Position numbers and translations under genes: made by a program | DNA from: Nitrosopumilaceae archaeon | Lineage (GTDB): Archaea; Thermoproteota; Nitrososphaeria; Nitrososphaerales; Nitrosopumilaceae | Reading direction: 5' to 3' | Length of the DNA stretch: 64,000 nucleotides | NCBI GenBank assembly: GCA_965200155.1 | Contig: CBDATR010000024.1 | Location: 320,001-384,000 of the forward strand | The notes under the pieces: generated by a model | What the model was told of the DNA's origin: nothing | Databases searched by the model: none | What the model saw: the letters and a program-made list of their open reading frames with translations, nothing else | In this document: in pieces, positions 4,304 through 62,598 of the stretch | Layout of the letters: each line of letters opens with the position of its first letter | Numbering within the stretch: the first letter of the stretch is position 1

Positions 4304-4395
4304 GTATGAGTTCACCTATGTCTAAATTTACACATAACTGATCGCGACAGTTAATGTGATTTGTGCATAAGATTCCGGAAGACGTGAACTCATAC
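4304..4395. mobile_element. 92-bp MITE family A (IS66-type ends)
   Basis: TIR GTATGAGTTCAC...GTGAACTCATAC, with 8-bp flanks AGTGAGAC/AGTGATAC. Confidence 0.9.
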
Positions 4396-6589: not shown

Positions 6590-6688
6590 GCAGGGATATC
6601 GAAGCTCGGTCAACCGAGAAGGACTCAAGATCAATCATAAGAGATCCTTTCCCTCAGGGGTTCGTGGGTTCGAATCCCACTCCCTGCA
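6590..6688 (+). tRNA. tRNA-Leu(CAA) with ~14-nt canonical intron
   Basis: GCAGGGA...AAGGA CT CAA G[ATCAATCATAAGAG]A TCCTT, long variable arm, GTGGGTTCGAATCCCAC TCCCTGCA. Confidence 0.93.
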
Positions 6689-12199: not shown

Positions 12200-12487
12200 G
12201 ATTTTCGTGGCACCTCGTTCCTGGGCACCACATGGCTTTGGCTTGTCACCATTATTACCGCCCCGGACGACACGCTCTGCCACCCCATACAGGGAAACCG
12301 GTTACTAAACGTCGCGTTGATATCGGCGTGAAACTCCTGGTTACATATTGAATGTGTCCCTAGTTGATCGTAATTTGTTGTCAACGTGTCCACACACGTG
12401 ATAGGTCTAGCTCGTTGGGCGGGTAAACCGCCCCTCGTGTATTTCGCTGGCACAGTCACCAATTCAATCCCTAGTGCCTCGCACTTT
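12200..12487 (-). pseudogene. TnpB (IS200/IS605) C-terminal relic
   Basis: Fragments KCEALGIELVTVPAKYT / VCGHVDNKLRSTRDTF / EFHADINA (Zn finger and RuvC-III). Confidence 0.75.
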
Positions 12488-13036: not shown

Positions 13037-13128
13037 GTATGAGTTCACCTGTGTCTAAATTTACGCATAACTGATCGCGGCAGTTAATGTGATTTGTGCA
13101 TAAGATTCCGGAAGACGTGAACTCATAC
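13037..13128. mobile_element. 92-bp MITE family A
   Basis: Same TIRs and body as the 4304 copy. Confidence 0.9.
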
Positions 13129-22523: not shown

Positions 22524-22823
22524 GTAATCGTTTAGGTCACCTAAGTGTTTTTCCTAATATGCAACCAAGGCAGGGACTAAATCCTGTTATCTCACTGCGC
22601 TACATTTGCGAACACAACATACGTTAGGGCTGGCGGTGTCTATCACCCACCGCTTCGGGCTTGTGGTTACCGGATTTTGTGTCATGAAAGCAATTCGGGT
22701 ATGAGTTCACCTATGTCTAAATTTACGCATAACTGATAGAACCGGTTACCAGTTAATGTGATTTGTGCATAAGATTCCGGAAGACGTGAACTCATACCAA
22801 TTCGGAGTGACCTAAACGGTTAC
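22524..22823. mobile_element. MITE family B with a nested family-A MITE (22699-22797)
   Basis: B ends GTAATCGTTTAGGTCAC / GTGACCTAAACGGTTAC; nested A copy has perfect TSD CAATTCGG. Confidence 0.88.
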
Positions 22824-29492: not shown

Positions 29493-29593
29493 TGGCGCCG
29501 GGAGGGAGATTTGAACTCCCGTTCCCTTGCGAGAACGCGCTTTATGGTCCTTGATTTCCAGGCGCGCGCCCTACCAGGCTAGGCGACCCCGGC
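29493..29593 (-). tRNA. tRNA-Ser(GGA) with ~14-nt canonical intron and encoded CCA
   Basis: GCCGGGG...CGCGC CT GGA A[intron]A GCGCG, long variable arm, GGGAGTTCAAATCTCCC. Confidence 0.93.
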
Positions 29594-37457: not shown

Positions 37458-38459
37458 TTGCCTGTAAATCACCTTAGCATAATGGTGAAGCGGTGGGCGT
37501 ACCCCAAAGGTAAACCTAAGCGGCATCTTTTATCCGAGAAGCTTTTCAAGTATGCCGCGGCCGCGGCAGGCGCATACGTCCTTGCCATAATCTTGGTCAT
37601 GGTGTGGCAGTTAGGGTTGGGCTCAATTCCCATATGGGAGGAAGAGGGAGCGGAATTCATCTATGGCACTGATTGGAACTCTGTCTACGGGCGGGAGTCC
37701 TTTGGTGCACTGCCTTATATCCTGGGCACGTTAATTACCAGCGCCATAGCATTGGCTATAGGATTTCCTCTAAGTGTGGGGATAGCCATGCTTGTGATGA
37801 TACTGCCTTCCAGGGTGGGCCAACCCTTGGGCTATGTGGTTGAATTCATAGAGGCCGTTCCCAGTGTGGTATTTGGTTTGTGGGGTTTGTTCACATTCCG
37901 TATATTCTTTGTAGATTATGTGGAAAAACCGTTACACGAAGCCTTTGGCGATAGTATATACGTGTTTGGTGGAACCCCATTTGGTCTTGACATACTTACC
38001 GCCAGTGTAGTGCTTGCAATAATGATAATTCCCACAATATCGGCCATATCCAGGGAGGTGATGATGGCAGTTCCCCAGCAACAGAAGGAGGCTGCCTATA
38101 TGCTTGGCTCTACCACATTTGAGATGTTCCGCCTTGCCATATTCCCGTACTCCAAGGGTGGGCTCTTTGGGGCCGCGATGCTGGGACTTGGGCGTGCTGT
38201 GGGCGAGACCATGGCGGTCACCATGCTTATAGGAAATGCCATAGGCGCCGCGGCCATCCCCCAATCACTATTCCATCCCGGCCAGACCATGTCCAGCTTG
38301 ATGGCCAACAACTTCTTTGAGGCCTCCTGGGTAAGTTTACAGCTGCCCGCGCTTATAGGCGTGGGGCTCATACTATTGGCGGTGGGGCTGGTCATTAGCT
38401 TGGCAGCCCACTTTCTGGTGGGTCGCATGGTAAAGATAAATGGCGGAGGGATAGATTGA
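37458..38459 (+). CDS. pstC: Phosphate ABC permease PstC
   Basis: VPSVVFGLWG and GRAVGETMAV motifs. Confidence 0.95.
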   Translation: MPVNHLSIMVKRWAYPKGKPKRHLLSEKLFKYAAAAAGAYVLAIILVMVWQLGLGSIPIWEEEGAEFIYGTDWNSVYGRESFGALPYILGTLITSAIALAIGFPLSVGIAMLVMILPSRVGQPLGYVVEFIEAVPSVVFGLWGLFTFRIFFVDYVEKPLHEAFGDSIYVFGGTPFGLDILTASVVLAIMIIPTISAISREVMMAVPQQQKEAAYMLGSTTFEMFRLAIFPYSKGGLFGAAMLGLGRAVGETMAVTMLIGNAIGAAAIPQSLFHPGQTMSSLMANNFFEASWVSLQLPALIGVGLILLAVGLVISLAAHFLVGRMVKINGGGID

Positions 38460-39388
38460 GTATAACTACTGAGGAGAGGCGGGCCGCCATACGCTCCATG
38501 TTTCGCTCCAATGTCTCCCGGCGATTGCTGGTAAACAAGATAATGATAGGCGGCGTAATTGCATGTGCCATTATAGCCATAGTGCCCCTGTTCTGGATCC
38601 TTGGAACTGTCGTATATCACGGAATGCCTGCCATGAGCCTGGCATTCTTGACCGAGGAGCCCGGCGCAGTGGGGGCAGGACATATTGCCATCGGACCCGC
38701 CATCCAGGGTACGCTGATTATAATAGGACTAACCATGGCGATGGGCATACCCATTGGTATAATGGGCGGAATATACTTGGCCGAATTCGGGGACAACAGG
38801 TTTGCGCGCCAAATGCGCTTCCTTACGGACGTATTCCTTCATGTGCCCTCCATAGTACTGGGCATATTCGCCTTTCTGATAATTGTGATAGTGCTGGGCC
38901 ACTATTCTGTATGGGCGGGGGCCTTTGCACTATCCCTGATAATGTTTCCCATAGTGGCGCGCTCCACCGAGGAGGCCATACGCATGGTGCCCCGGACCTA
39001 TAGGGAGGCAGGTGCCGCCTTGGGACTAACAAAGATGACCGTAACGCTGCGGGTGGTTCTATCCCAAGCCAAGCGCGGCATACTGGCCGGTGTGCTCCTT
39101 TCTGTCTCTAGGGTGAGCGGCGAGAGCGCCCCACTCATAATGACCATACAGGGAAGTAGCCTGTTCTTCCAGGGTTTTGATTCACCCATGGATGCACTGC
39201 CCCTGCGCATATGGCGATACTCGTTGCAACCATATGATGAGGCGCGCCTGGCCGCGTGGGGTGCCGCATTTACCATACTGTTACTGATATTCGCAATACA
39301 CCTTACCATGCGCTACTTTTTCCTCCGATCCGGTACCGGCAAAGGCTTAATTGATGTGATGGCGAAATGGATAGCATATAAAAAATGA
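38456..39388 (+). CDS. pstA: Phosphate ABC permease PstA
   Basis: VPSIVLG and RVSGESAPL motifs. Confidence 0.95.
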
Positions 39389-40191
39389 GCACGCTTGCCC
39401 AGGAACAGACTCCGTCCAGTGCAGACTTTGATAAAAAATACAAGGTTGTGACAGAGAATATCAACATATACTATGGCAATGTCCATGCAGTAAAGGATGT
39501 AAACCTAAGGTTTCCGGAAAAGTCTGTCACCGCCCTCATAGGCCCGTCCGGTTGTGGAAAGACTACGTACCTGCGATGCCTAAACCGCATGCATGACATG
39601 ACAAAAGGCGCCCGGGTAGAGGGCAGGGTCTTTGTGGACGAGACTGATCTCTATGACAAGAGCATAAACCCGATATACCACCGACGGAAAGTGGGCATGG
39701 TATTTCAAAAACCCAACCCCTTTCCCACCATGTCCATATATGATAACGTGGTGGCCGGAGTAAAACTGAACGGGGTGCGGGACAGGGCAGTACTAGACGA
39801 GATAGTCGAGGACTGCCTAAAAATGGCATACCTGTGGGACGAGGTCAAGGACACCTTGCGAAAACCTGCCGCGGAGCTCTCCGGGGGCCAACAACAGCGA
39901 TTATGTATAGCCCGGGCCTTGGCAATACAGCCTGAGGTATTGCTAATGGATGAGCCTGCCTCTGCCCTGGACCCGGTGGCTACCCAGAAGATAGAGGAAA
40001 CCCTGACGGACCTCAAGAGTGAGTATTGCATAATAATAGTCACGCACAATATGCAACAGGCTACCCGTTGCTCTGACTATACCGCGTTTATGTATTTGGG
40101 CAATCTCATAGAATACGGTGAGACAAAGCAGATATTTGAAAATCCGCAGGATCCACTAACTGCTAAATATGTGCGTGGTCAATTCGGCTAA
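39385..40191 (+). CDS. pstB: Phosphate ABC ATPase PstB
   Basis: [28 protein letters not shown]. Confidence 0.97.
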
Positions 40192-40848
40192 TTGGCACGA
40201 CTCATAGATCCTTCCCTAAAGCGGTTATCATTTGTGATGGGGGAGATGGGAGATCTTGCCATGCGCTCCCTGAATCTTGCCATGGACTCCTTTATAGTGG
40301 GAACCAATACCAGAAACGATACGCTGCATGTATCGGATAGTATAGTAGAGAAGTACTTTGAGGTCGAAGATCTCACATTTGAGATTCTGTTAAAATACCA
40401 GCCACTGGCCCAGGATTTTCGATTCGTCCGCTCCTCTATCGAGATATCCTATGCATTTCAAAGATTTGGCCGGTATGCATATGACATTACCCAGGTGCGG
40501 GACTCCTTTGGCGATATAAGGCACTGCAAGAATGACAAACTGATGGAGTCGTTCATGCTTGTGCAACGCATGATGAAGGAGGCTATCTTCTCTTTTGCCA
40601 CGCTGGATGTACAGAAGGCCTGGCGCATAAGGGAGCGCGAGGACATGGTGGATACAATATACAGGGAGAGGTTACCATATCTAGTACACAGCACCGATAC
40701 ACAGTGCGCATTGGTGGAGGCTCTCTTGCTCCGGTACTTGGAGCGAATCGCGGATCATGCCCTGTTCATGAGCGATGCCATTACGTACATTGTTACAGGG
40801 AAGCACCAGCATCGTGTTATCCATAATGGCGCAAAGGGTAATGCCTGA
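40192..40848 (+). CDS. phoU: Phosphate transport regulator PhoU
   Basis: YQPLAQD and LERIADH motifs; follows pstB. Confidence 0.9.
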   Translation: MARLIDPSLKRLSFVMGEMGDLAMRSLNLAMDSFIVGTNTRNDTLHVSDSIVEKYFEVEDLTFEILLKYQPLAQDFRFVRSSIEISYAFQRFGRYAYDITQVRDSFGDIRHCKNDKLMESFMLVQRMMKEAIFSFATLDVQKAWRIREREDMVDTIYRERLPYLVHSTDTQCALVEALLLRYLERIADHALFMSDAITYIVTGKHQHRVIHNGAKGNA

Positions 40849-40897
40849 TTATCACAGCGAACAAATTAAATGCCATGCATGCACTATTTTGTTCTAG

Positions 40898-41776
40898 TTG
40901 GCGCTTAGAGAGATACTGGAGATTTCAAAACCTCGTATAGTGATATTACTGGTAATTACCGCGGTGGCTTCCCTGTATGGTGCCAGTACGCTGGCGCCGG
41001 GGGATCACCAGGTCGCCTATGTCACATACATCCACATCGCGGTGGCCGGAGCCTTGGCCTCCGCTGGTTCTAGCGCCCTCAACCACTACTATGATAGGGA
41101 TATAGATGCCACCATGTCCAGGACCCGTTCTAGGCCCATACCTTCCAGCCGCATGAGTCCCCGGGCTGTTCTTGTTTATGGCCTAGGCGTATCCTGCGTT
41201 TCTGTGGTGTATGGGTATCTGCTGCTAAATGCAGCTTCGGCCTTCTTTATCGCGCTGGGTATATTCTCGTATGTAGTCATATACACCATTTGGCTGAAGC
41301 GGAAAAATACCAGCAATATAGTAATAGGCGGGATAGCTGGCAGTGCCGCATCTTGGGCAGGGTGGGCCGCGGCCACCGGAACAATGGATTTGCTGGGATT
41401 TTTGGTGGGGTTCTTGGTATTTGTGTGGACGCCGTCGCATTTCTGGTGTCTGGCGATGAAGATACGCGACGAATACCAGCAAGCCAATGTGCCAATGCTG
41501 CCGGTAGTGGTTGGTATGCATAAAACATCTGTCTACATATTGGCCAATACCCTGATACTGGTGCCGTACTCTCTGGCGCTATATGCCTTTGGTATGGGTC
41601 TTGTATATCTGGGAATTGCCGCCGTATCTGGTGGATTGATGCTCGCATACCACTACAAACTTACAAAGAACCCAACTTCCGACTTTGCCTGGAAGGCCTA
41701 CAAAGTCACCGCGCCCTACCTGACTATAATATTTCTGGCAGTAGTGCTGGATGCCGCCCTGCACATACGTCTGTAG
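40898..41776 (+). CDS. cyoE: Protoheme IX farnesyltransferase (heme O synthase)
   Basis: KPRIV, NHYYDRDIDATMSRTRSRP, WTPSHFW. Confidence 0.95.
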   Translation: MALREILEISKPRIVILLVITAVASLYGASTLAPGDHQVAYVTYIHIAVAGALASAGSSALNHYYDRDIDATMSRTRSRPIPSSRMSPRAVLVYGLGVSCVSVVYGYLLLNAASAFFIALGIFSYVVIYTIWLKRKNTSNIVIGGIAGSAASWAGWAAATGTMDLLGFLVGFLVFVWTPSHFWCLAMKIRDEYQQANVPMLPVVVGMHKTSVYILANTLILVPYSLALYAFGMGLVYLGIAAVSGGLMLAYHYKLTKNPTSDFAWKAYKVTAPYLTIIFLAVVLDAALHIRL

Positions 41777-41838
41777 ACGTTTAGGGCGCCATATTGGAAT
41801 GCTACATAAAATGAGATCCAAGTTTGACCGTATGTTTT

Positions 41839-41930
41839 GTATGAGTTCACCTGTGTCTAAATTTACGCATAACTGATCGCTACAGTTAATGTGATTTGTG
41901 CATAAGATTCCGGAAGACGTGAACTCATAC
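41839..41930. mobile_element. 92-bp MITE family A
   Basis: Perfect TIRs and perfect 8-bp TSD TATGTTTT. Confidence 0.95.
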
Positions 41931-42057
41931 TATGTTTTAGCTCTCTCCAAACCTGTTTTTGTTAGCAGGCATGGTTGCACATTGCGTCCTCTTGGCAATG
42001 TGAATGTCGTGTAGTGCCAGTACGAGATTCAAATGACTTGATGCCCCATCTGTTACT

Positions 42058-42348
42058 CTAGATATCTGCCCTGGGGAAGCTGGCTTCGTACTCTTTCTCG
42101 CGCATGCGCATCTGCTCCTCTTCCTGCTTGTTCTCTTTTATGGCTACCACTTCTATTTTGCGCGCATCCTTGGTGAACCATGTAACGGTTATCAGTCCTG
42201 TTATCTCTAGGTCCAGCAGCATCTTGTTGAATCTGTCTGCTGGCATGGTGATTCCGTCTTTGGCCAAGGACTTTGCCAGCTCTTCGTCTGTCAGTGATCC
42301 GGAATTCTTTATCTTTTCGTATGCCATATTGCGAAGGGGAATGGTCAT
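42058..42348 (-). CDS. Small winged-helix-like conserved protein downstream of cdc48
   Basis: LTDEEL...FNKMLLDLEITGLI. Confidence 0.7.
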   Translation of the reverse strand: MTIPLRNMAYEKIKNSGSLTDEELAKSLAKDGITMPADRFNKMLLDLEITGLITVTWFTKDARKIEVVAIKENKQEEEQMRMREKEYEASFPRADI

Positions 42349-42349
42349 T

Positions 42350-44512
42350 TTAGCCGTAGAACACCTTGTCTGTTTCTTTGTTCATTATGTTTGAAATACT
42401 TTCGCTTATGCGGGCGTACCACTGGCTCATGTCAGGGGTTATGGAGGGTTTGGCTCGCGTAAGGGCATAGACAAAGTCGGCGTTTGTTATGTGTGCCTGG
42501 TTATTGCGCATGGCATGTATGGCTGCCTCCCTGCACAAGGCGGCCAAATCCGCGCCGGTATAATTATTTGTGGCCACCGCTATCTCCTGCATATTCACAT
42601 CATCCATAAGGGGCATTTTGCCGGTAAGTATACGAGCTATCTCAATTCTCTCCTGCTCGTTTGGCGCTCCTACATGCAGTAGTATGTCTAGGCGTCCTGT
42701 CCTTATGAGTGACGAATCCAACACATCCGGCCTGTTGGTTATTCCAATGACCGCAACGCCGGGAATCGTACCCTCCTCTATCTCGGTAAGCAGCTGGCTG
42801 AGTACGGTCTCGCTGGCACCGCCCTCCCTGTGCCTGGCCAGCGAGTCTAGCTCGTCAAATATTATGACGCAGGGTGCAGAGGCTTTGGCTTTTCGAAATA
42901 TCTCCCGTATGGCCTTCTCGGACTCTCCCATCCACTTTGAGAGGATCTCAGGACCACGTATCAGAATCATGTTGGCCCCGCTCTCAGTTGCCATGGCCCG
43001 GGATACAAGGGTCTTGCCACATCCCGGCGGACCATACAACAGTGCTCCCTTGGGTGGCCGTATTCCCATCTTGGTGAACTTGGATGGTTCTCGCATGGAT
43101 ACCACAAGATTGTTGGCAAGATCCTCCTTAACCTGGCTTAGTCCTCCAACATCTGTCCAGTGTATCTTGGGCTGCTCAACGTAGAACTCCCTCATTGCAG
43201 TGGGTACCACCTCGTGCATGCCCTGGTGGAAGTCGGACAGTCTTATTTGCATACACTCTAGTACATTGGTGGGTATCTTCTCAGACTCCAAGTCGATATG
43301 TGGCAGATAGCGGCGTATGGCTCGCAGGGCCGCCTCCCGGCACAGTGATTTTATATCAGCGCCAGTATAGCCGTGCAGCTCCGAGGCGAGCTCCTTGATG
43401 TTTACATCCTCTGCCAGAGGCATGCCCCGTGTATGTATATGCAGTATGTCCTGGCGCCCGTCCGTATTTGGTACTGATATCTCAAACTCCCGATCAAAGC
43501 GTCCCGGTCGCCGTAGTGCCGCCTCTACACTGTCGGGGCGATTGGTGGCGCCTAGCACCAGAACGTTGCCCCGCTCATCGAGCCCGTCCATCAGGGCTAA
43601 TAGTTGGGCCACTACGCGCTTTTCCACATCCCCGTAAGAGTCCTCCCGCTTAGGCGCGATGGCATCTATCTCGTCAATGAATATTATGCTGGGTGCATTC
43701 TCCCTTGCCTCCTTGAATATGTCACGAAGACGCGCCTCGGTCTCGCCGTAATACTTGTTTACAATCTCAGGACCATTAATGGAATACATGTTGGCGTCTG
43801 ACTCACTGGCTAATACCTTGGCAATCAGTGTCTTCCCGCATCCTGGTGGTCCGTACAACAGGACCCCGCTGTGAGCCTCCACTCCCAACCTCGCAAAGAG
43901 CTCGGGATGGCGCAGGGGAAGCTCCACAATCTCCCTCATGGCCTTTATCTCGTGATAGAGACCCCCCACTTCCTCGTATGTGATACGCGCCTTGCGATCA
44001 ACAGCCGCCTCTGGCGATATACTGAGGCTGGTGGACTCATCTATCCGTACCACTGCGCCAGGCGTGGCCTTCTCAAGACGCAGGAGTATGGGGCTGCCCA
44101 GTATCATAACGGATATCTCATCGCCCACTATAAGGGGCAGGCCGCTCAGCCGTTTCTTTACAAAATTTGTAAATTCCGTATCTGCCACTACAGTGCCATT
44201 TACCGGAACAAAGATTACCGAGCGTGCTGTCTTGGCAGTCGTTTTCTTGACCTTTACAGTATCATTGAGAGAGACGCCCATGATCTTGCGGGTTTGTCCG
44301 TCTATGCGGATGACGTCGGGCATTTTTTCGTCCTCGTCTGCAGGCCAGGCGATGGCGCAACTTGACCGCATACCTGTTATCTCAATTATGTCTCCTGGTG
44401 CTACATTAAGATAGTCCATGGCATCCGGGCCCATGCGCGCCCGTTTCTTTCCCACATCGCGATGCTTTGCCTCGCCCACATGCATTTGTAGGCTACCATT
44501 ACCATTGTTCAA
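42350..44512 (-). CDS. cdc48: CDC48/VCP-family AAA+ ATPase
   Basis: N-domain plus two GPPGCGKT AAA modules. Confidence 0.96.
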   Translation of the reverse strand: MNNGNGSLQMHVGEAKHRDVGKKRARMGPDAMDYLNVAPGDIIEITGMRSSCAIAWPADEDEKMPDVIRIDGQTRKIMGVSLNDTVKVKKTTAKTARSVIFVPVNGTVVADTEFTNFVKKRLSGLPLIVGDEISVMILGSPILLRLEKATPGAVVRIDESTSLSISPEAAVDRKARITYEEVGGLYHEIKAMREIVELPLRHPELFARLGVEAHSGVLLYGPPGCGKTLIAKVLASESDANMYSINGPEIVNKYYGETEARLRDIFKEARENAPSIIFIDEIDAIAPKREDSYGDVEKRVVAQLLALMDGLDERGNVLVLGATNRPDSVEAALRRPGRFDREFEISVPNTDGRQDILHIHTRGMPLAEDVNIKELASELHGYTGADIKSLCREAALRAIRRYLPHIDLESEKIPTNVLECMQIRLSDFHQGMHEVVPTAMREFYVEQPKIHWTDVGGLSQVKEDLANNLVVSMREPSKFTKMGIRPPKGALLYGPPGCGKTLVSRAMATESGANMILIRGPEILSKWMGESEKAIREIFRKAKASAPCVIIFDELDSLARHREGGASETVLSQLLTEIEEGTIPGVAVIGITNRPDVLDSSLIRTGRLDILLHVGAPNEQERIEIARILTGKMPLMDDVNMQEIAVATNNYTGADLAALCREAAIHAMRNNQAHITNADFVYALTRAKPSITPDMSQWYARISESISNIMNKETDKVFYG

Positions 44513-49594: not shown

Positions 49595-50008
49595 CTTACT
49601 GTCTAGCCTGCACTAATCGCCGCGCCCCATCGTTAATGAGTACCCGCATGAATTAACTCATATCGGCGGCGCTAATATGTACCTGTATTTTGTCACTTTA
49701 CAGTAATCGTTTAGGTCACGTCTGGTTCTCTGACTTTTTGTTTCAGATAACCAGTGGCTAGATTGTTATATCCGGCATATCCGTAACACGTGATTAGCTT
49801 GTCCAGTATGTCTGAATAGTACATTTTGATTATCTCCGATGAGCGTGAGGTGGCCAGCTTGTATGCTATGCTGTCATTTCCACTGCACGCCCACGCGTAT
49901 GCAGTCTTGCCGTTCAGCGAGAGGGGGGTCTCGTCCATCAGTATGGTCTCGGATTTGATCAAATCCTCCCGGATTTTTCCCACCTCTTTCTCCATTTTTT
50001 CAGATGCA

Positions 50009-50114
50009 GCTTCCATGGCGTGCTGTATTGTTGTCTTGCAGGAGCCACTCATCCTTGATTTGATCCCGATTGTATCGCTTCCATGGCGTGCTGTATTGTT
50101 ATCTTGCAGGAGCC
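50009..50114. repeat. 38-bp duplication (1 mismatch) enclosing a 30-bp insert, inside the IS66 pseudogene
   Basis: GCTTCCATGGCGTGCTGTATTGTT(G/A)TCTTGCAGGAGCC at 50009 and 50077. Confidence 0.85.
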
Positions 50115-50710
50115 TGCCTCGTACATTTTCATGGTGTCCGCGATACCCTGCAGTGTGGAACCATTGTAATATGCAGTGGTCATTATGGTCAATAAGTTGG
50201 GTCCAAATTGTGTGCCCGGGATACTCCGGGTTCATGTACCATATCCGTAATGTTATGACATTCCCGGCACCGTCACTCCTCTGTTATGTGCGCGGTAACC
50301 TCGGCTTTCGGAATAACGGGTATGTCTGTTGTGGTGTTGCCGGTCTTTTCCAGGTTTTTAGAGCCGCATTTTGAACACTTGTCAGGGGTCTTGTCAGGGG
50401 TCTTGCGGACTATTTTGTCAGGCCTTCTGTTGTGGTATTTTCCCGGGTGCCCGCTCCTCCGGCCTCACTTGAGTGGAGTTTACCTTTTTCTTTGCGGCTT
50501 TTTTTCATCTTCTGAGGAATGGAGTTCTGTGATGGTTGGGGTATGCGGGTTTTCATAGTATCGGAGACGATTCTTTAATGATTTTACTTCCACATCCCTC
50601 GCTGTGAGTATTATCTTCAATTCTGTCTTGTCTGTCTCCAACCTTGTAATCTTGTCTGATTGTATCTCGATGATCATGTCTTTCCCTTTGATTATTCTGA
50701 TCAGTTTACC

Positions 50711-50959
50711 GGGAATTATATATGAAAGTAGCACAGAAGAAGCGTATCGCTCCAACTAGGGACGAAAATGGAATGTAACCCGTTCCAGTCCAAGAATGGC
50801 GCTACGCGTAACTAGAATGATTCACCATTCCATGGAATAGAACCGGTTCCCTGGTTGAACTTGTTACACGACTTATTGTAACTATGCCGCCATTCCTGGA
50901 CTGGAAATCATTATTCTAGTGAAAGCCCTACTGCAGTGCTACTTTCGTATATAATTTCC
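50711..50959. mobile_element. ~250-bp MITE family G (IS1595-type ends); left arm of the composite
   Basis: GGGAATTATATATGAAAGTAGCAC...GTGCTACTTTCGTATATAATTTCC. Confidence 0.85.
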
Positions 50960-51114
50960 TGCTCAAGTGTGGCAACCATCTTATCCAACCAGAATCCAGC
51001 ATGGCGAACAGGTACACCGCGAATCATGTATATTCACCAGTCCTCCACTTCTCACCACCTGTAGTTCCATGATTCTGTATTGACGTTCATCATGAGTGGT
51101 GGCAGTCTTGCGCG

Positions 51115-51244
51115 GTATGAGTTCGCCTATGTCTAAATGGAACGGGTCATTCTATAACTGATCGCGACAGTTAAAGAGTAACCGGTTACTATTTTGTGCA
51201 TAAGATTGGAGTAACCGGTTACGTTCCAAGACGTGAACTCACAC
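51115..51244. mobile_element. MITE family A variant with three palindromic patches
   Basis: Family-A TIRs; 130 bp versus the 92-bp consensus. Confidence 0.85.
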
Positions 51245-51266
51245 ACCCATTCTTTGTAATTGCAAG

Positions 51267-53498
51267 TTACTGGAGTGTCGTGAATGTCTTGATATTTGAG
51301 AACATAGTAGTGTCGCCCTTGAGCCGGACTAGTACCTGGTATGAGGTATCTGAATCCAAGCCTGTTATAGTATACGTGGTACCTGAGACATGATGTGCAG
51401 AGTGACGACTGCCATCATTGTTATTGATACGCACTACATAATCTGTCATGGAATGGTACTGATTCCAAGATAGAGTGGCGCCATTAGTGGTTGGGTTCAC
51501 ATTCAGTACTATGGAGTCTTCGACTCCCGTCAAGCCGCCATTCGCTGAGAGTGTAGTGAATGTCTTGGTATTTGAGAACATAGTAGTGTCGCCCTTGAGC
51601 CGGACTAGTACCTGGTATGAGGTATCTGAATCCAAGCCTGTTATAGTATGAGTGGTTCCGGCAACATGATTCACGAGTACTCTTGCGCCATTGGAATCAT
51701 TCACGCGAATCACATAGTCGTTTGTATCACCATATTTCTGCCAGGAAGCAGTAGCACCATCAGTTTTACTAGTCACTACAAGTCCCCACATATGTGTCGG
51801 GAATGAGGGAGTGAAATGTATCTTGTGTGACTTTGTATTTTCATTACCATTTAGCTGGACCTCAACTCTATACGTGGTACCTGGTATCAAATCATGTATA
51901 GTATGTGAGATTCCATTTGCCACATGTCTGGTCGTATCGCCATCGTTCCCTGTTAGAAACACCACATAGCTATTACCATTCTCATACCGGTCCCAATGTA
52001 TTGTGATACTACTCTCATCTAAATAGCAGTAGCCAACACGTGACACTTTGTCTATACTACGTATTGGTTTAGTATTCCAAGTGGAGAATGTGATTGGGTC
52101 TGAATCCGTGGCCGGACCGGTAACCGGGTGAGATGGGGCCGATACCGTTACAGTATAAGATTGACATGGTTCAAGTCCATATAATCTATATTTAACAATG
52201 GAATCGGCCGGGGCGTGGTGTGTTGTATGACTCGTTACATGACCGGATGAATCCGTTACCTTCACAATATACTCAGACTGCCTGGATATTGCGGTCCACG
52301 TTAAATCTACATGAGTAGAGAATGTCTTGTGTACGGCAAGGTCTGCCAGTGGAAGATTAGTAGTAGAGAATGATTTTGTCGCGGAGCCTACCTCCATATA
52401 AGCACCAGTTCCATTATATAGGGCGCTGACCTTTAAGTTGTAGTTGGTGCCCGGTTGCAGGCTGTCAACGTCTAGATTAATGGTTGTATTGGCCTGATAA
52501 TAACCTGTATGGCCCTGTGTTATAATATCATCGGAGTCAGTCGTCACCCTATACCCAAAGAAACCCGGATGATTCGCCATCCACGAGAAGGATGCGGCAT
52601 GGTGCGATATAGCAGTGGTATCCAGGTCCTCTATCATAATGGAATGGTTCGTGTCCCTGGTTTCAAAGTTGAACGAGCCGACGCTCATTGCTTTGGTATT
52701 ATCAGCGTATACATTTACCATATAGGTTGTGCCTGGTTCTAGTCCGGATATGCGTGTCATGCCCTCACTAGCCATACCAGATGCTACTACCTCATCACTA
52801 GTAGATACCTCATAGTATGATGAGTCTACATTCCACGACATGAATATAGTGTCATGCCCTATTTCTGTAGAGGGGATGAATGGACTGGTGGTCACAATAT
52901 CTAAACTTAGAAGGATAGCATTATCAAGACCAAATACATAGCCGCCAGTATACCTTGTCTCCGGTTTCAGATCCGTAACAGTAATAGTCGATCCTGTCGT
53001 GTAGTATACAGTCTCCGGACCATCAAGAAAAACTCCAGTGGTAGATACTCGGTCCTCTGGCGCTAGTTCTACGGTGAGAGTAGTATCCGTTATTTCTATG
53101 ATACGGGGTACCTCTATGCTACTTTCAGTGACGTTCAGTATAAAGTCATCATTGGCACGATCATTAACATTGGTTTTGTCCCATATGGTAATGCGAAGTT
53201 GGTATAAGCCAAATTGAGTACGGTCGGGTACTGCAAAAAGTTCAAATAAACCATGCCGTGAAGGTTTAGTTCCAATAAAATCGGGCGCTTTGGTACCGTT
53301 CTGATATTTTACCTCATAGTAGGAGTCAGTTGCATTAATTATGTAAGACCCTATCGTGCCCGCTTCTAGTTCGACTTCACCTAGTGGAGCGGTGAACTCT
53401 GGTGCAGCGGCGTATGCGGACGTTGCAAATGTAGTTATGATGATGAGTAATAGGATTGATTGTACCCCCCCCGGGAACCATAATAATACTAACAACAT
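51267..53498 (-). CDS. Secreted multi-fibronectin type III domain protein
   Basis: Signal peptide (..TSAYA/AAPEF) and about 7 FN3 repeats (W..., L.P.T.Y.V.V); last two nearly duplicated. Confidence 0.9.
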   Translation of the reverse strand: MLLVLLWFPGGVQSILLLIIITTFATSAYAAAPEFTAPLGEVELEAGTIGSYIINATDSYYEVKYQNGTKAPDFIGTKPSRHGLFELFAVPDRTQFGLYQLRITIWDKTNVNDRANDDFILNVTESSIEVPRIIEITDTTLTVELAPEDRVSTTGVFLDGPETVYYTTGSTITVTDLKPETRYTGGYVFGLDNAILLSLDIVTTSPFIPSTEIGHDTIFMSWNVDSSYYEVSTSDEVVASGMASEGMTRISGLEPGTTYMVNVYADNTKAMSVGSFNFETRDTNHSIMIEDLDTTAISHHAASFSWMANHPGFFGYRVTTDSDDIITQGHTGYYQANTTINLDVDSLQPGTNYNLKVSALYNGTGAYMEVGSATKSFSTTNLPLADLAVHKTFSTHVDLTWTAISRQSEYIVKVTDSSGHVTSHTTHHAPADSIVKYRLYGLEPCQSYTVTVSAPSHPVTGPATDSDPITFSTWNTKPIRSIDKVSRVGYCYLDESSITIHWDRYENGNSYVVFLTGNDGDTTRHVANGISHTIHDLIPGTTYRVEVQLNGNENTKSHKIHFTPSFPTHMWGLVVTSKTDGATASWQKYGDTNDYVIRVNDSNGARVLVNHVAGTTHTITGLDSDTSYQVLVRLKGDTTMFSNTKTFTTLSANGGLTGVEDSIVLNVNPTTNGATLSWNQYHSMTDYVVRINNNDGSRHSAHHVSGTTYTITGLDSDTSYQVLVRLKGDTTMFSNIKTFTTLQ

Positions 53499-54189
53499 AG
53501 AACAATAAAAGGATTACGTGGTTGTCAGTTATATGTCACCTTTTGGTGATCAGAGCAGGACGCAATTCTCTTTATAGGTATACCATACCCGGATATCGTA
53601 GAAATGGGACCCACACTCCGGGTAAGGACGGGGATAACAGGGTAATCAGTCCATATTCAATCCATGTATTGCACTTGAATCCATGTACCTACTTTACAGC
53701 GCCAATGACAGGTATGTGTTTAATTGGAATCTTTTCCGCACGTAACGCATCCCAAATCTTTGGCACGCCCACAGCTGGTTCTTCGCCGCACATTGAAGGG
53801 TCTCTGATTCTAGCCGGTATTAGTGTGGTTTCCAATTATTGCCGCGCTAGATTGGGATTGTGTGGGCAGGAGACCCCCCTCCTGCGCGCCATGAGTGGAG
53901 AGGCAGGAATCCCATGCGGGACATATGTCAAAGATGAGCAAACTAGGGGACTTTTATCTAAAAGTCCAACTAGAAGGTAGCGAAAGGATGTAACAGGCGA
54001 TGATTAGTGGAGATATTCATGAAACCGTATTCAAGTGAGTGGACGTGACAGTCATAATCATGTATTAACATCAAAGACACCGTTGCAAACCTTGCTCTAT
54101 TCCCATACTGTACCTGCAATGACTAGGCGACTGGTGGGAAAAATCATTCCTGGACGCTCAGGTTGGATTGACCCGCAACAGGAGTCCAA

Positions 54190-54786
54190 ACACTACTTGG
54201 TTATGCTTATCTGTCCGACTAACAGACTTTTAGATTTCAGTGTCCGCCGCAATAACCCATGGCAGGTATGAGTTCACCTGTGTCTAAATGGAACGGGTCA
54301 TTCTATAACTGATCGCGACAGTTAAAGAACCGGTTCTTTTGTGCACAAGATTCCGGAAGACGTGAACTCATACCATGGCAGTGGTCGCGGCTCCAAAGAG
54401 TATGTTTAGGACATTGGCATCCACGCCGGTGGACATCATTGTAAACATCAACATCATTAATCCACCCAGACCGGCAAATATCATCATGGTTAAAGGAAGC
54501 TGCTTTGGCGGAGGCCTTGTCTGCTTGCCAGTGGGCTTTTCCGGAATGACGCCATTCTTTACTGCCTCCAGGCATACGAACAGTACCGACCATGATTGTG
54601 TGATTTCAGGTAATAGTATTCCACGCCGCAGAATGAGCAGGGCTTAGTGGGTATTCCGTGATGATCAAACTCCCGGCCAAGATCCACCATGCAATTCTTG
54701 CAGTAGTGGCCGGGAATTCGCCACATGTTCTGGAACTTGTATTTCTTCCAGCTTAGCGTCTTGCCACAACCACTACAGTTAGTCAT
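54190..54786 (-). pseudogene. Zn-finger/membrane protein gene, frameshifted and MITE-interrupted
   Basis: CxxC-rich N-terminus; shifted-frame PLTMMIFAGLGGLMM...FGAATTAM, cut by MITE A. Confidence 0.6.
54266..54373. mobile_element. MITE family A variant with two patches
   Basis: Perfect TSD CATGGCAG. Confidence 0.92.
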
Positions 54787-54835
54787 GTCTTTCTCTCATC
54801 ATTACCTTCTTAATACCTGCTCTGGCCTCTATTAT

Positions 54836-55088
54836 GGAAATTATATACGAAAGTAGCACGGCAGTAGGACTTTCACTAGAATAATGATTCCAGTCCAGGA
54901 ATGGCGGCATAGTTACAATAAGTCGTATAACAAGTTCAGCCAGGGAACCGGTTCTATTCCATGGAATGATGAATCATTCTAGTTACGCGTAGCGCCATTC
55001 TTGGACTGGAACGGGTTACGTTCCATTCCACTTTCGTCCCTAGTTGGAGCGATACGCTTCTCCTGTCCTACGTTCGTATATAATTCCC
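54836..55088. mobile_element. MITE family G, inverted copy; right arm of the composite
   Basis: Near reverse complement of 50711-50959. Confidence 0.85.
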
Positions 55089-62506: not shown

Positions 62507-62598
62507 GTATGAGTTCACGTCTTCCGGAATCTTGTGCACAAATCACATTAACTGTCGCGATCAGTTGTGCGTAAATTTAGACACAGGTGAACTCATAC
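62507..62598. mobile_element. 92-bp MITE family A (inverted)
   Basis: Same TIRs and body in reverse orientation. Confidence 0.9.

Follow-up and report, generated by a model that had tools for sequence, protein, structure and literature searches.

Mobile elements in the genome of a Nitrosopumilaceae archaeon carry very short palindromic patches, each of which overwrites a few bases at a defined site. The patches are real and repeated and are not an artefact, and no single ancestral event explains them. At somewhat less than even confidence, our preferred reading is that they are 12-20 nt, CCGG-centred palindromic replacement modules, present only inside mobile elements, with a templated origin and a spread by transposition and gene conversion. 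The window analysed here, the whole 64,000-nt stretch at C24:320001-384000, belongs to a draft genome that totals 2.38 Mb in 51 contigs with 46.6% G+C; the draft is 88% complete, a figure that bears on every absence from the genome given below.

The IS66-derived carrier and its patch alleles

The principal carrier is a small element, here MITE A, of which the whole 2.38-Mb genome contains 627 units bounded by the terminal repeat GTATGAGTTCAC...GTGAACTCATAC; 409 of these units are 92 bp long, 59 are 99 bp and 70 are 101 bp. Its 24-nt left end has seven matches in the window and none in shuffled sequence. An autonomous IS66 element of 1740 bp at C43:69966-71705 (terminal inverted repeat GTATGAGTTCACGTG..., 8-bp duplication AAATTAGG) encodes a single ORF of 529 aa with the PF03050 transposase domain. 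The terminal 12 nt of MITE A and of this element, whose repeat is longer, are identical, and MITE A likewise makes an 8-bp target duplication. Together with PF03050 in the autonomous partner, these shared features identify the 92-bp element as an IS66-derived MITE. Among the multi-copy gene families of the genome, IS66 is also the largest (45 ORFs of at least 150 aa), ahead of the DDE_Tnp_4 transposase (34) and the Type ISP restriction enzymes (21). The last are restriction-modification enzymes of Mrr_cat_2, ResIII and Type_ISP_C domains, their 21 ORFs again being of at least 150 aa (for example C24:240827-245077 and C9:110449-114774). Within the window, a fragment of an IS66-family transposase, the family that supplies the MITE A ends, lies at 49711-50235 on the minus strand. 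MITE A was not found in any of the 30 relatives searched, nine of them of the same genus, and exact-pattern scans of metagenome contigs and genome contigs returned no orthologous MITE loci.

Fixed anchors split 564 of the 627 units into comparable parts, leaving out 63 that are compound, nested or diverged. At least one patch is present in 147 of the parsed copies, and 417 have none. Eight discrete alleles occupy four sites, each swapping 4-6 nt for 12-20 nt with the core RGAACCGGTTCY or GTAACCGGTTAC. Site 1 has a single allele, GGAACGGGTCATTCT in place of TTACGC (16 copies). At site 2, CGCGAC is replaced either by GGAACAGGTTGTTCT (68 copies plus 2 with one substitution, hence 70) or by AGAACCGGTTACC (18 copies). 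Site 3, originally TGTGA, is patched in 58 copies in three length forms, namely AGAACCGGTTCT (45 copies and 4 point variants), AGAGTAACCGGTTCT (5) and AGAGTAACCGGTTACTAT (4), and site 4, originally CCGG, in 10 copies in two forms, GGAACCGGTTCC (8) and GGAGTAACCGGTTACGTTCC (2). Sequences at the unpatched target sites include TCGCGA, TTCCGGAA and AATGTGATT, and each site has its own private variant of the palindrome.

Three patched copies lie in the window, and every replacement reported in them by the initial annotation is present. The most heavily patched, a 130-nt copy at 51115-51244 (plus strand) that is duplicated on contig C5, combines the site-1 patch GGAACGGGTCATTCT at 51139-51153 (16/564 parsed copies) with the long site-3 form AGAGTAACCGGTTACTAT at 51175-51192 (4/564) and the long site-4 form GGAGTAACCGGTTACGTTCC at 51208-51227 (2/564, which are one duplicated pair). 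In its predicted fold these patches base-pair with each other, giving -27.5 versus -16 kcal/mol for an unpatched copy. A 108-nt copy at 54266-54373 (plus strand) has the same site-1 patch at 54290-54304 and the short site-3 form AGAACCGGTTCT at 54326-54337 (45 exact plus 4 point variants of 564), and a 99-nt copy at 22699-22797 (plus strand) has AGAACCGGTTACC at site 2, replacing CGCGAC at 22738-22750 (18/564). Unpatched copies are found at 4304-4395 (92 bp, plus strand) and at 13037-13128, 41839-41930 and 62507-62598 (minus strand). The consensus TTACGC proposed earlier for site 1 holds in 515 of the 564 parsed copies genome-wide, but the copy at 4304 reads TTACAC.

Every patch consists of two head-to-head arms meeting at a joint of CCGG or GG. 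Most arms are RGAACC or GTAACC. The earlier description of arms that meet at CCGG and derive from one longer template was thus right about the head-to-head arrangement and the CCGG joint, but the full 11-nt arm GGAACGTAACC is rare (GAACGTAACC has 4 matches in the genome), with complete examples confined to the ~250-bp MITE nearby and the right arm of 51208-51227; some joints are GG, and two alleles, GGAACG/GGTCATTCT and GGAACA/GGTTGTTCT, are centred on GGT rather than CCGG.

The same alleles recur in 2-70 copies over many contigs. Metagenome runs were compared as Logan contigs at 90% likeness or more, and the stretch around the patched copies is represented in sponge-metagenome runs of three studies. 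These contigs break 28-29 nt inside the MITE, so that independent sponge-metagenome contigs cross its start into the first 5 nt only of the site-1 patch (to 51143 and 54294). One such record of run X1 (record 7, 53581-54294) has no differing letters, and records 21 and 23 of run X6 have 4 and 7 along their length. A further Logan contig joins 51114 to 51244, a joint that does not give the content between its two sides. Recurrence on many contigs and, for the first 5 nt of the site-1 patch, in independent sponge-metagenome contigs led us to reject an adapter or assembly quirk as the source, and the patch sequences are not adapters.

No direct repeat or target duplication surrounds the patches at any site in MITE A, TnpB or IS66, as the initial annotation had observed for MITE A, whereas MITE A itself makes an 8-bp duplication; no remnants of such a duplication flank the patches. 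Across all modules, 4-8 nt are lost at the target. This loss and the missing direct repeats do not fit a nested MITE or an ordinary transposon insertion.

The missing duplications also weigh on the proposal that the patches are excision footprints of an IS or MITE with ends GTAACCG or GGAAC. GTAACC plus GGTTAC would be the first and last 6 nt of an element ending GTAACCG...CGGTTAC, and such a motif does occur in this genome's repeats. However, neither an 8-bp nor a 3-bp duplication surrounds the patches, and the commonest arms are GAACC, not GTAACC. The IS66 ends, which the initial annotation had given as beginning GTAACCG, are GTATGAGTTCAC and begin GTATGAG, unlike the arms. The candidate motif GTAACCGTTTAG lies in a longer conserved repeat adjoining the 3' end of a DDE_Tnp_4 gene, and is no element terminus, since copies remain similar for 60 nt or more beyond it. 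No element with RGAACC... or GTAACC... termini was found at the patched sites. A footprint, whether of IS66 or of another element, is accordingly the explanation that we consider most improbable.

The same motif in other mobile elements

In the window, AACCGGTT occurs 10 times versus 0.81 expected from shuffles (maximum 4), and in the genome GAACCGGTTC occurs 113 times, compared with 8 occurrences of the reversed control and, in any one of the 30 relatives, 0-10. Genome-wide there are 233 AACCGGTT sites, 83 of them inside masked MITE A copies; the remaining 150 are mostly in IS66, TnpB, a MITE family termed F and other repeat families. Singletons number about 30-34 against about 30 expected when the window shuffles (0.81 per 64 kb) are scaled up, so unique DNA has no excess of the motif, and two apparent singletons (C24:482702 and C24:482736) sit in a diverged MITE with an IS66-type end. 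The motif is thus confined to mobile elements and, relative to the 30 relatives, to this genome. Thirteen tandem copies of a 39-bp unit containing AGAACCGGTTG, at C10:386960-387440, add 13 to the raw AACCGGTT counts and are probably a coding repeat unrelated to the patches. In an unbiased survey of indels in repeats, 18 of the 429 distinct insertions that were at least 8 nt long contained the motif, an undercount not usable as a rate, since BLAST scatters gaps over replacement patches.

Additional patch sites emerged when the flanks of every AACCGGTT were compared with and without the insert. In the 3' part of the IS66 transposase ORF, GCTTTGC becomes TGGAACCGGTTCT in 38 of 69 copies, which turns ...TNNPAEQALRYAVVFRK... 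into ...TNNPAEQWNRF-stop (AEQALR to AEQWNRF-stop). Two other genomes of the family have distant IS66 homologues with AERALR at the patch position, which makes the unpatched AE[Q/R]ALR the ancestral state in IS66. A second case is a TnpB pseudogene family, a member of which matches the Cas12f1-like TNB domain of Pfam above cut-off and OrfB_IS605 at 26.6 bits, under the cut-off of 30.5. Among the 16 copies located with exact 12-nt anchors, 15 are patched after the ADINAA codons with CGTTTAGTAACCGGTTTCCCTGTA or a point variant, and the sole unpatched copy has CATGGAACATCCTGTA, reading AAWNILYG. The patch adds 8 nt and hence shifts the frame, with patched copies reading ADINAA-FSNRFPCMG versus AYINAAWNILYG in the single unpatched copy. 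By BLAST, about 38 copies span the site, with one unpatched form among the variants listed. The window holds one patched copy, with TTTAGTAACCGGTTTC at 12294-12309 on the minus strand. A second GTAACC of the TnpB family (TGTAACCAGG) was dropped as a candidate patch, being ordinary coding sequence (C-N-Q).

Family F is a MITE of about 250 bp, inverted copies of which stand on either side of the patched MITE A pair. The copy at 50711-50959 (minus strand) carries AGAACCGGTTCC at 50839-50850 and GGAATGTAACCCGTTCC at 50770-50786, and the inverted second copy at 54836-55088 (plus strand) carries AGAACCGGTTCC/GGAACCGGTTCT at 54944-54955 and GGAACGGGTTACGTTCC at 55008-55024. A second palindrome of the family, GGAA[T/C]G...TAACCCGTTCC, contains the long arm. 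Elsewhere, one repeat pair differs as GGTATCG versus AGAACCGGTTAC. The two family F copies enclose a 4.4-kb segment (50711-55088) that contains an fn3-repeat gene (51267-53498, minus strand) and both of the neighbouring patched MITE A copies. A duplicate of the entire segment lies on contig C5, at about 38145-44466, and in metagenome runs X1 and X5 one contig each bridges 50701 to 55088 without the segment, which looks like a composite-transposon-like insertion polymorphism. The window also includes a TruD gene and two tRNA matches (6590-6688 and 29496-29593) of 98-99 nt, well over the 71-position model; both are probably intron-bearing, and with TruD they indicate an archaeal host.

Two other families yielded no additional sites. 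For family D (17 exact seed matches, about 27 BLAST-spanning copies), a patch between E and K of a YREK-type transposase motif was considered, and we make no claim for it; Pfam gave no transposase match to either ORF piece. Family E (6 copies) was left uncounted, a 345-bp block being conserved in all six with no unpatched form found. Another MITE family (for example C9:167730-167790) has a 27-nt palindromic insert, GAGGGGACTCTTATTTAAGAGTCCAAY, with a 3-bp GAG repeat on either side, in 49 copies that all share one context, one of them with two tandem inserts. This has the look of a clean insertion, which the CCGG patches do not. Such other palindromic indels in repeats suggest that the mobile DNA of this genome generally contains small palindromic modules.

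Patches thus occur both in 147 of 564 parsed MITE A copies and in other mobile elements. The confinement to mobile elements bears directly on the route favoured by the initial annotation, in which the 3' ends of a double-strand break are extended with a quasi-fixed sequence by a reverse transcriptase, a PrimPol or a terminal-transferase-like activity, and the CCGG-ended tails then anneal. Such a scar would suit the loss of few bases without duplication and the arms of variable length around a constant CCGG, and a GGAACCGG tail on both ends would reproduce GGAACCGGTTCC. General scars, however, would be expected anywhere, and in unique DNA the motif is only at chance level. The GGT-centred alleles have no self-complementary CCGG joint, and copying is the better explanation of alleles that recur unchanged in as many as 70 copies. 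Nor does the gene content point to a tailing machinery: domain searches of the 88% complete genome gave no match for Ku and none for Prim-Pol, and the sole RVT_1 match (C50:22300-22781) is split by a TAA stop, with neighbouring ORFs that match no NCBIfam family, so reverse transcriptase involvement was set aside. Contig C50 also has bacterial-looking SDR oxidoreductase and AzlC genes. We consider the end-joining route very unlikely.

A functional module under selection is a less remote prospect, although still an improbable one. Here the IS66 transposase or a host protein would use the palindrome as a binding site or hairpin, making the carrying element more mobile or more persistent, and rare acquisitions would have been amplified, hence their stereotyped look. 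This would suit the confinement of the motif to mobile elements of several families, the size of the patched subfamilies (70, 58 and 18 copies) and the higher predicted foldback stability of patched copies. Against it, the patch destroys the IS66 and TnpB reading frames, which is no gain for an element's own enzyme, and selection leaves the entry of the sequence unexplained.

Sublineages, changes in place and mosaic copies

Patches at sites 1 and 4 behave as one sublineage of MITE A. Of the 16 site-1 patches, 15 are on site-3-patched copies, as are all 10 site-4 patches, and position 32 is T wherever either occurs. The observed combinations can be ordered from the short site-3 patch alone, through the addition of site 1 and then of the short site-4 patch, to the longer site-3 forms and the long site-4 form; in the same lineage, the GTAACCGGTTAC core is present at site 3 before it turns up at site 4.

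Sites 2 and 3 have a different distribution. Their patches are found on all four haplotypes of the C/T positions 32 and 65, and on the A3G variant as well, in the same proportions as in unpatched copies. With these C/T sites, 8-23 nt away, D' is about 0, while positions 32 and 65 are tightly linked to each other (r2 0.38, p 3e-50). Both positions (for example window 4335 and 4368) lie in GCAYAA, and unpatched copies divide into CC 126, TT 211, CT 31 and TC 41. One of the two differs inside a recent duplication of more than 1.2 kb (C7:4570 versus C10:399477); such discordance may reflect hypermutable sites or conversion. Double patches at sites 2 and 3 are missing from all 564 copies, versus about 7 expected (p 5e-4).

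Five pairs of loci have common flanks and the same target duplication, yet are unlike in patch state. Identical flanks and duplication alone do not prove a single insertion, because MITE A has repeatedly hit the 8-mer AAACGGTT/AAATGGTT, in both orientations, in a repeat adjoining a DDE_Tnp_4 transposase gene (for example C5:80867 and C24:104009). Three of the five pairs (C9:123546/C34:161532, C23:4267/C35:33034 and C24:186487/C43:110707), which differ in their site-2 patch, also have a rare private substitution in common, which makes independent insertion at one site very unlikely for them. The pair C9:51228/C9:120140 differs at site 1, and in a cluster of seven members with identical flanks, six have AGAACCGGTTACC at site 2 and one has AGAACCGGTTCT at site 3 instead.

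IS66 behaves similarly. Almost every copy is its own haplotype, with the patch only partly linked to neighbouring variants, and three patched/unpatched pairs are identical over 72 variable columns, from about 70 nt upstream to 215 nt downstream. At least 460 open codons remain upstream in 4 of 38 patched and 10 of 32 unpatched copies, and a deletion derivative with 55 open codons exists in both patch states. Patch state therefore changes in place between paralogues, by gain or by loss at any single locus. Since paralogues differ in state and haplotypes are mosaic, the patches have probably spread by transposition and short-tract ectopic conversion and not as one sublineage. The single sublineage that the initial annotation had named as a counter-explanation accounts for part of the pattern; there are at least five independent origins in MITE A, and others in other elements.

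Judging from the general mosaicism of MITE and IS66 haplotypes, repeats in this genome often undergo short-tract ectopic conversion, a process sufficient to carry patches from one copy to another. The fit is imperfect, given the lack of association with a marker 8 nt away and the missing site-2 and site-3 doubles; to accommodate both, conversion tracts would have to be about 17-32 nt long with the site in the middle. Such short tracts might result if conversion started at the palindrome or at the small dyad that it replaces. The data would also suit recurrent patching at specific sites, if neighbouring sites interfere with one another.

One version of such recurrence is a micro-element mobilised in trans, in which the palindrome is a tiny mobile unit, as has been claimed for the small dispersed repeats (SDRs) of cyanobacteria, put de novo at the same preferred sites by a trans-acting enzyme. 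It would account for the linkage equilibrium of patches with markers 8-23 nt away, for otherwise identical paralogues that differ in patch state and for the many target contexts, and the 27-nt palindromic insert of the other MITE family, with its 3-bp GAG repeat and one tandem copy, is a seemingly genuine insertion. But the same 15-nt product would have to arise at the same position dozens of times, and yet every site has a private variant. Moreover, a Y1/HUH transposase was not found in the genome, the motif is at chance level in unique DNA, and site-2 and site-3 doubles do not occur. A mobile micro-element is on balance unlikely, if less so than a module under selection. A free hairpin or template with GGAACGTAACCGG, if one exists, would revive this model or the tailing model.

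A process specific to mobile elements might instead repeatedly overwrite dyad-symmetric sites with a stereotyped palindrome, independently in many copies, disabling transposase genes, either as a by-product of transposition chemistry or as a transposon-directed genome defence in an archaeal symbiont. We rate this joint claim as quite doubtful, below the selected module and above the end-joining scar. If it were true, the process would have introduced a stop into IS66 at the conserved AE[Q/R]ALR region and shifted the reading frame of TnpB immediately past its DINAA motif. CRISPR self-targeting finds no backing as a driver: 0 of 287 spacers of the C9 array match MITE A or IS66 or carry the patch motif. 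That array, at C9:71009-91902, is very large, with 289 repeats (ATTTCCGCAGCCTAACGGTTGCGGCCTCATTGAAG) and spacers of about 36 nt, one of which matches C25:4806-4833 over 28/28 nt.

Origin of the alleles and relation to known small repeats

Our preferred reading, of templated entry followed by spread, has to account for at least five site/allele origins in MITE A and more in the IS66 ORF, the TnpB family, the second MITE and other repeats. At least a dozen times, a similar palindrome has separately entered a site without homology to the others. Each allele would begin as a rare, non-homologous but templated replacement, in which a strand switch or short-patch copy from a palindromic hairpin in the same or another mobile element enters a small dyad-symmetric site. 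Slippage across the hairpin could produce the variably skipped arms. The long arm GGAACGTAACC contains the direct repeat AAC...AAC, slippage across which would give GGAACC, and hairpin-associated slippage may thus yield the skipped forms. Once present, a patch could spread as its element transposes and by short-tract ectopic gene conversion among several hundred near-identical copies, and palindromes within one element might convert one another.

Two flanking bases per side are complementary at three of the four MITE A sites, and the final palindromes reach into old sequence (AAAGAACCGGTTCTTT, TTGGAACCGGTTCCAA). Over seven origin sites (four in MITE A, IS66, TnpB and one repeat pair), 2 bp of dyad symmetry in the flanks is seen at 3, judged by eye with boundaries chosen after the fact. 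These features hint weakly that small dyads may be the targets. The GGT-centred alleles of sites 1 and 2 have no exact donor outside MITE A, all 67 matches to GAACAGGTTGTTC being in the MITE. Because such site-specific variants are without an exact donor elsewhere in the genome, each entry was imprecise or its donor has since been lost. Zero association at 8 nt beside strong linkage over 33 nt counts against the preferred reading, being a poor fit to neutral conversion and a better fit to recurrent site-specific patching.

The closest parallels are the small dispersed repeats SDR1-8 of Nostoc punctiforme and its relatives, reportedly described by Elhai and colleagues in 2008 as sequences of about 21-27 nt, many of them inverted repeats. 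They are said to lie inside MITEs and at palindromic target sites and to vary in presence between related sequences, and to our knowledge they encode no enzyme. A published passage places the insertion of SDR5 precisely within the HIP1 palindrome. The patches are likewise very small dispersed inverted-repeat modules, inside MITEs and at palindromic targets, and are present or absent at otherwise matching sites in paralogues and IS66 pairs, although conversion could give the same result. In contrast to SDRs, with their reported 21-27 nt, the patches are 12-20 nt long and have an archaeal host; they replace 4-8 nt where SDRs reportedly insert cleanly, are confined to mobile elements without excess in unique DNA, and belong to a single sequence family whose arms vary.

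Ectopic (interlocus) gene conversion has the same hallmarks of mosaic haplotypes, lost linkage between neighbours and paralogues of one insertion that differ; it covers the spread of the patches but not the first entry of similar palindromes into non-homologous sites. Quasipalindrome template-switch mutations and the snap-back insertions of alternative end joining are templated by adjacent sequence and so are different at every site. As in such events, a few bases give way to a longer stretch that makes or perfects an inverted repeat without duplication, but the patches have nearly the same sequence at unrelated sites. REP and REPIN sequences with their RAYT transposases are short palindromic repeats that spread within one genome (PMC3116915), as the patches do. 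The patches are without the GTAG/CGTC tag and lie inside mobile elements rather than as extragenic singletons or doublets, and the 88% complete genome has no match to PF01797, the Y1/RAYT family. Word searches of open-access full text returned no description of such patches in archaea, which leaves room for an earlier one.

Overall, the patches are more like the tiny dispersed cyanobacterial repeats than like a scar of general DNA repair, and our best guess, by analogy with SDRs, is that they may originate in templated replacement between hairpin-forming palindromes. Since very small palindromic repeats were described in cyanobacteria, their origin and movement have been an open question. This genome offers an unusually clean natural experiment: about 600 near-identical carriers share eight alleles at four sites, two transposase gene families have undergone matching events, and several sponge metagenomes contain the host population. 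For this genome it also means that MITE subfamilies defined by such indels are unreliable lineage markers.
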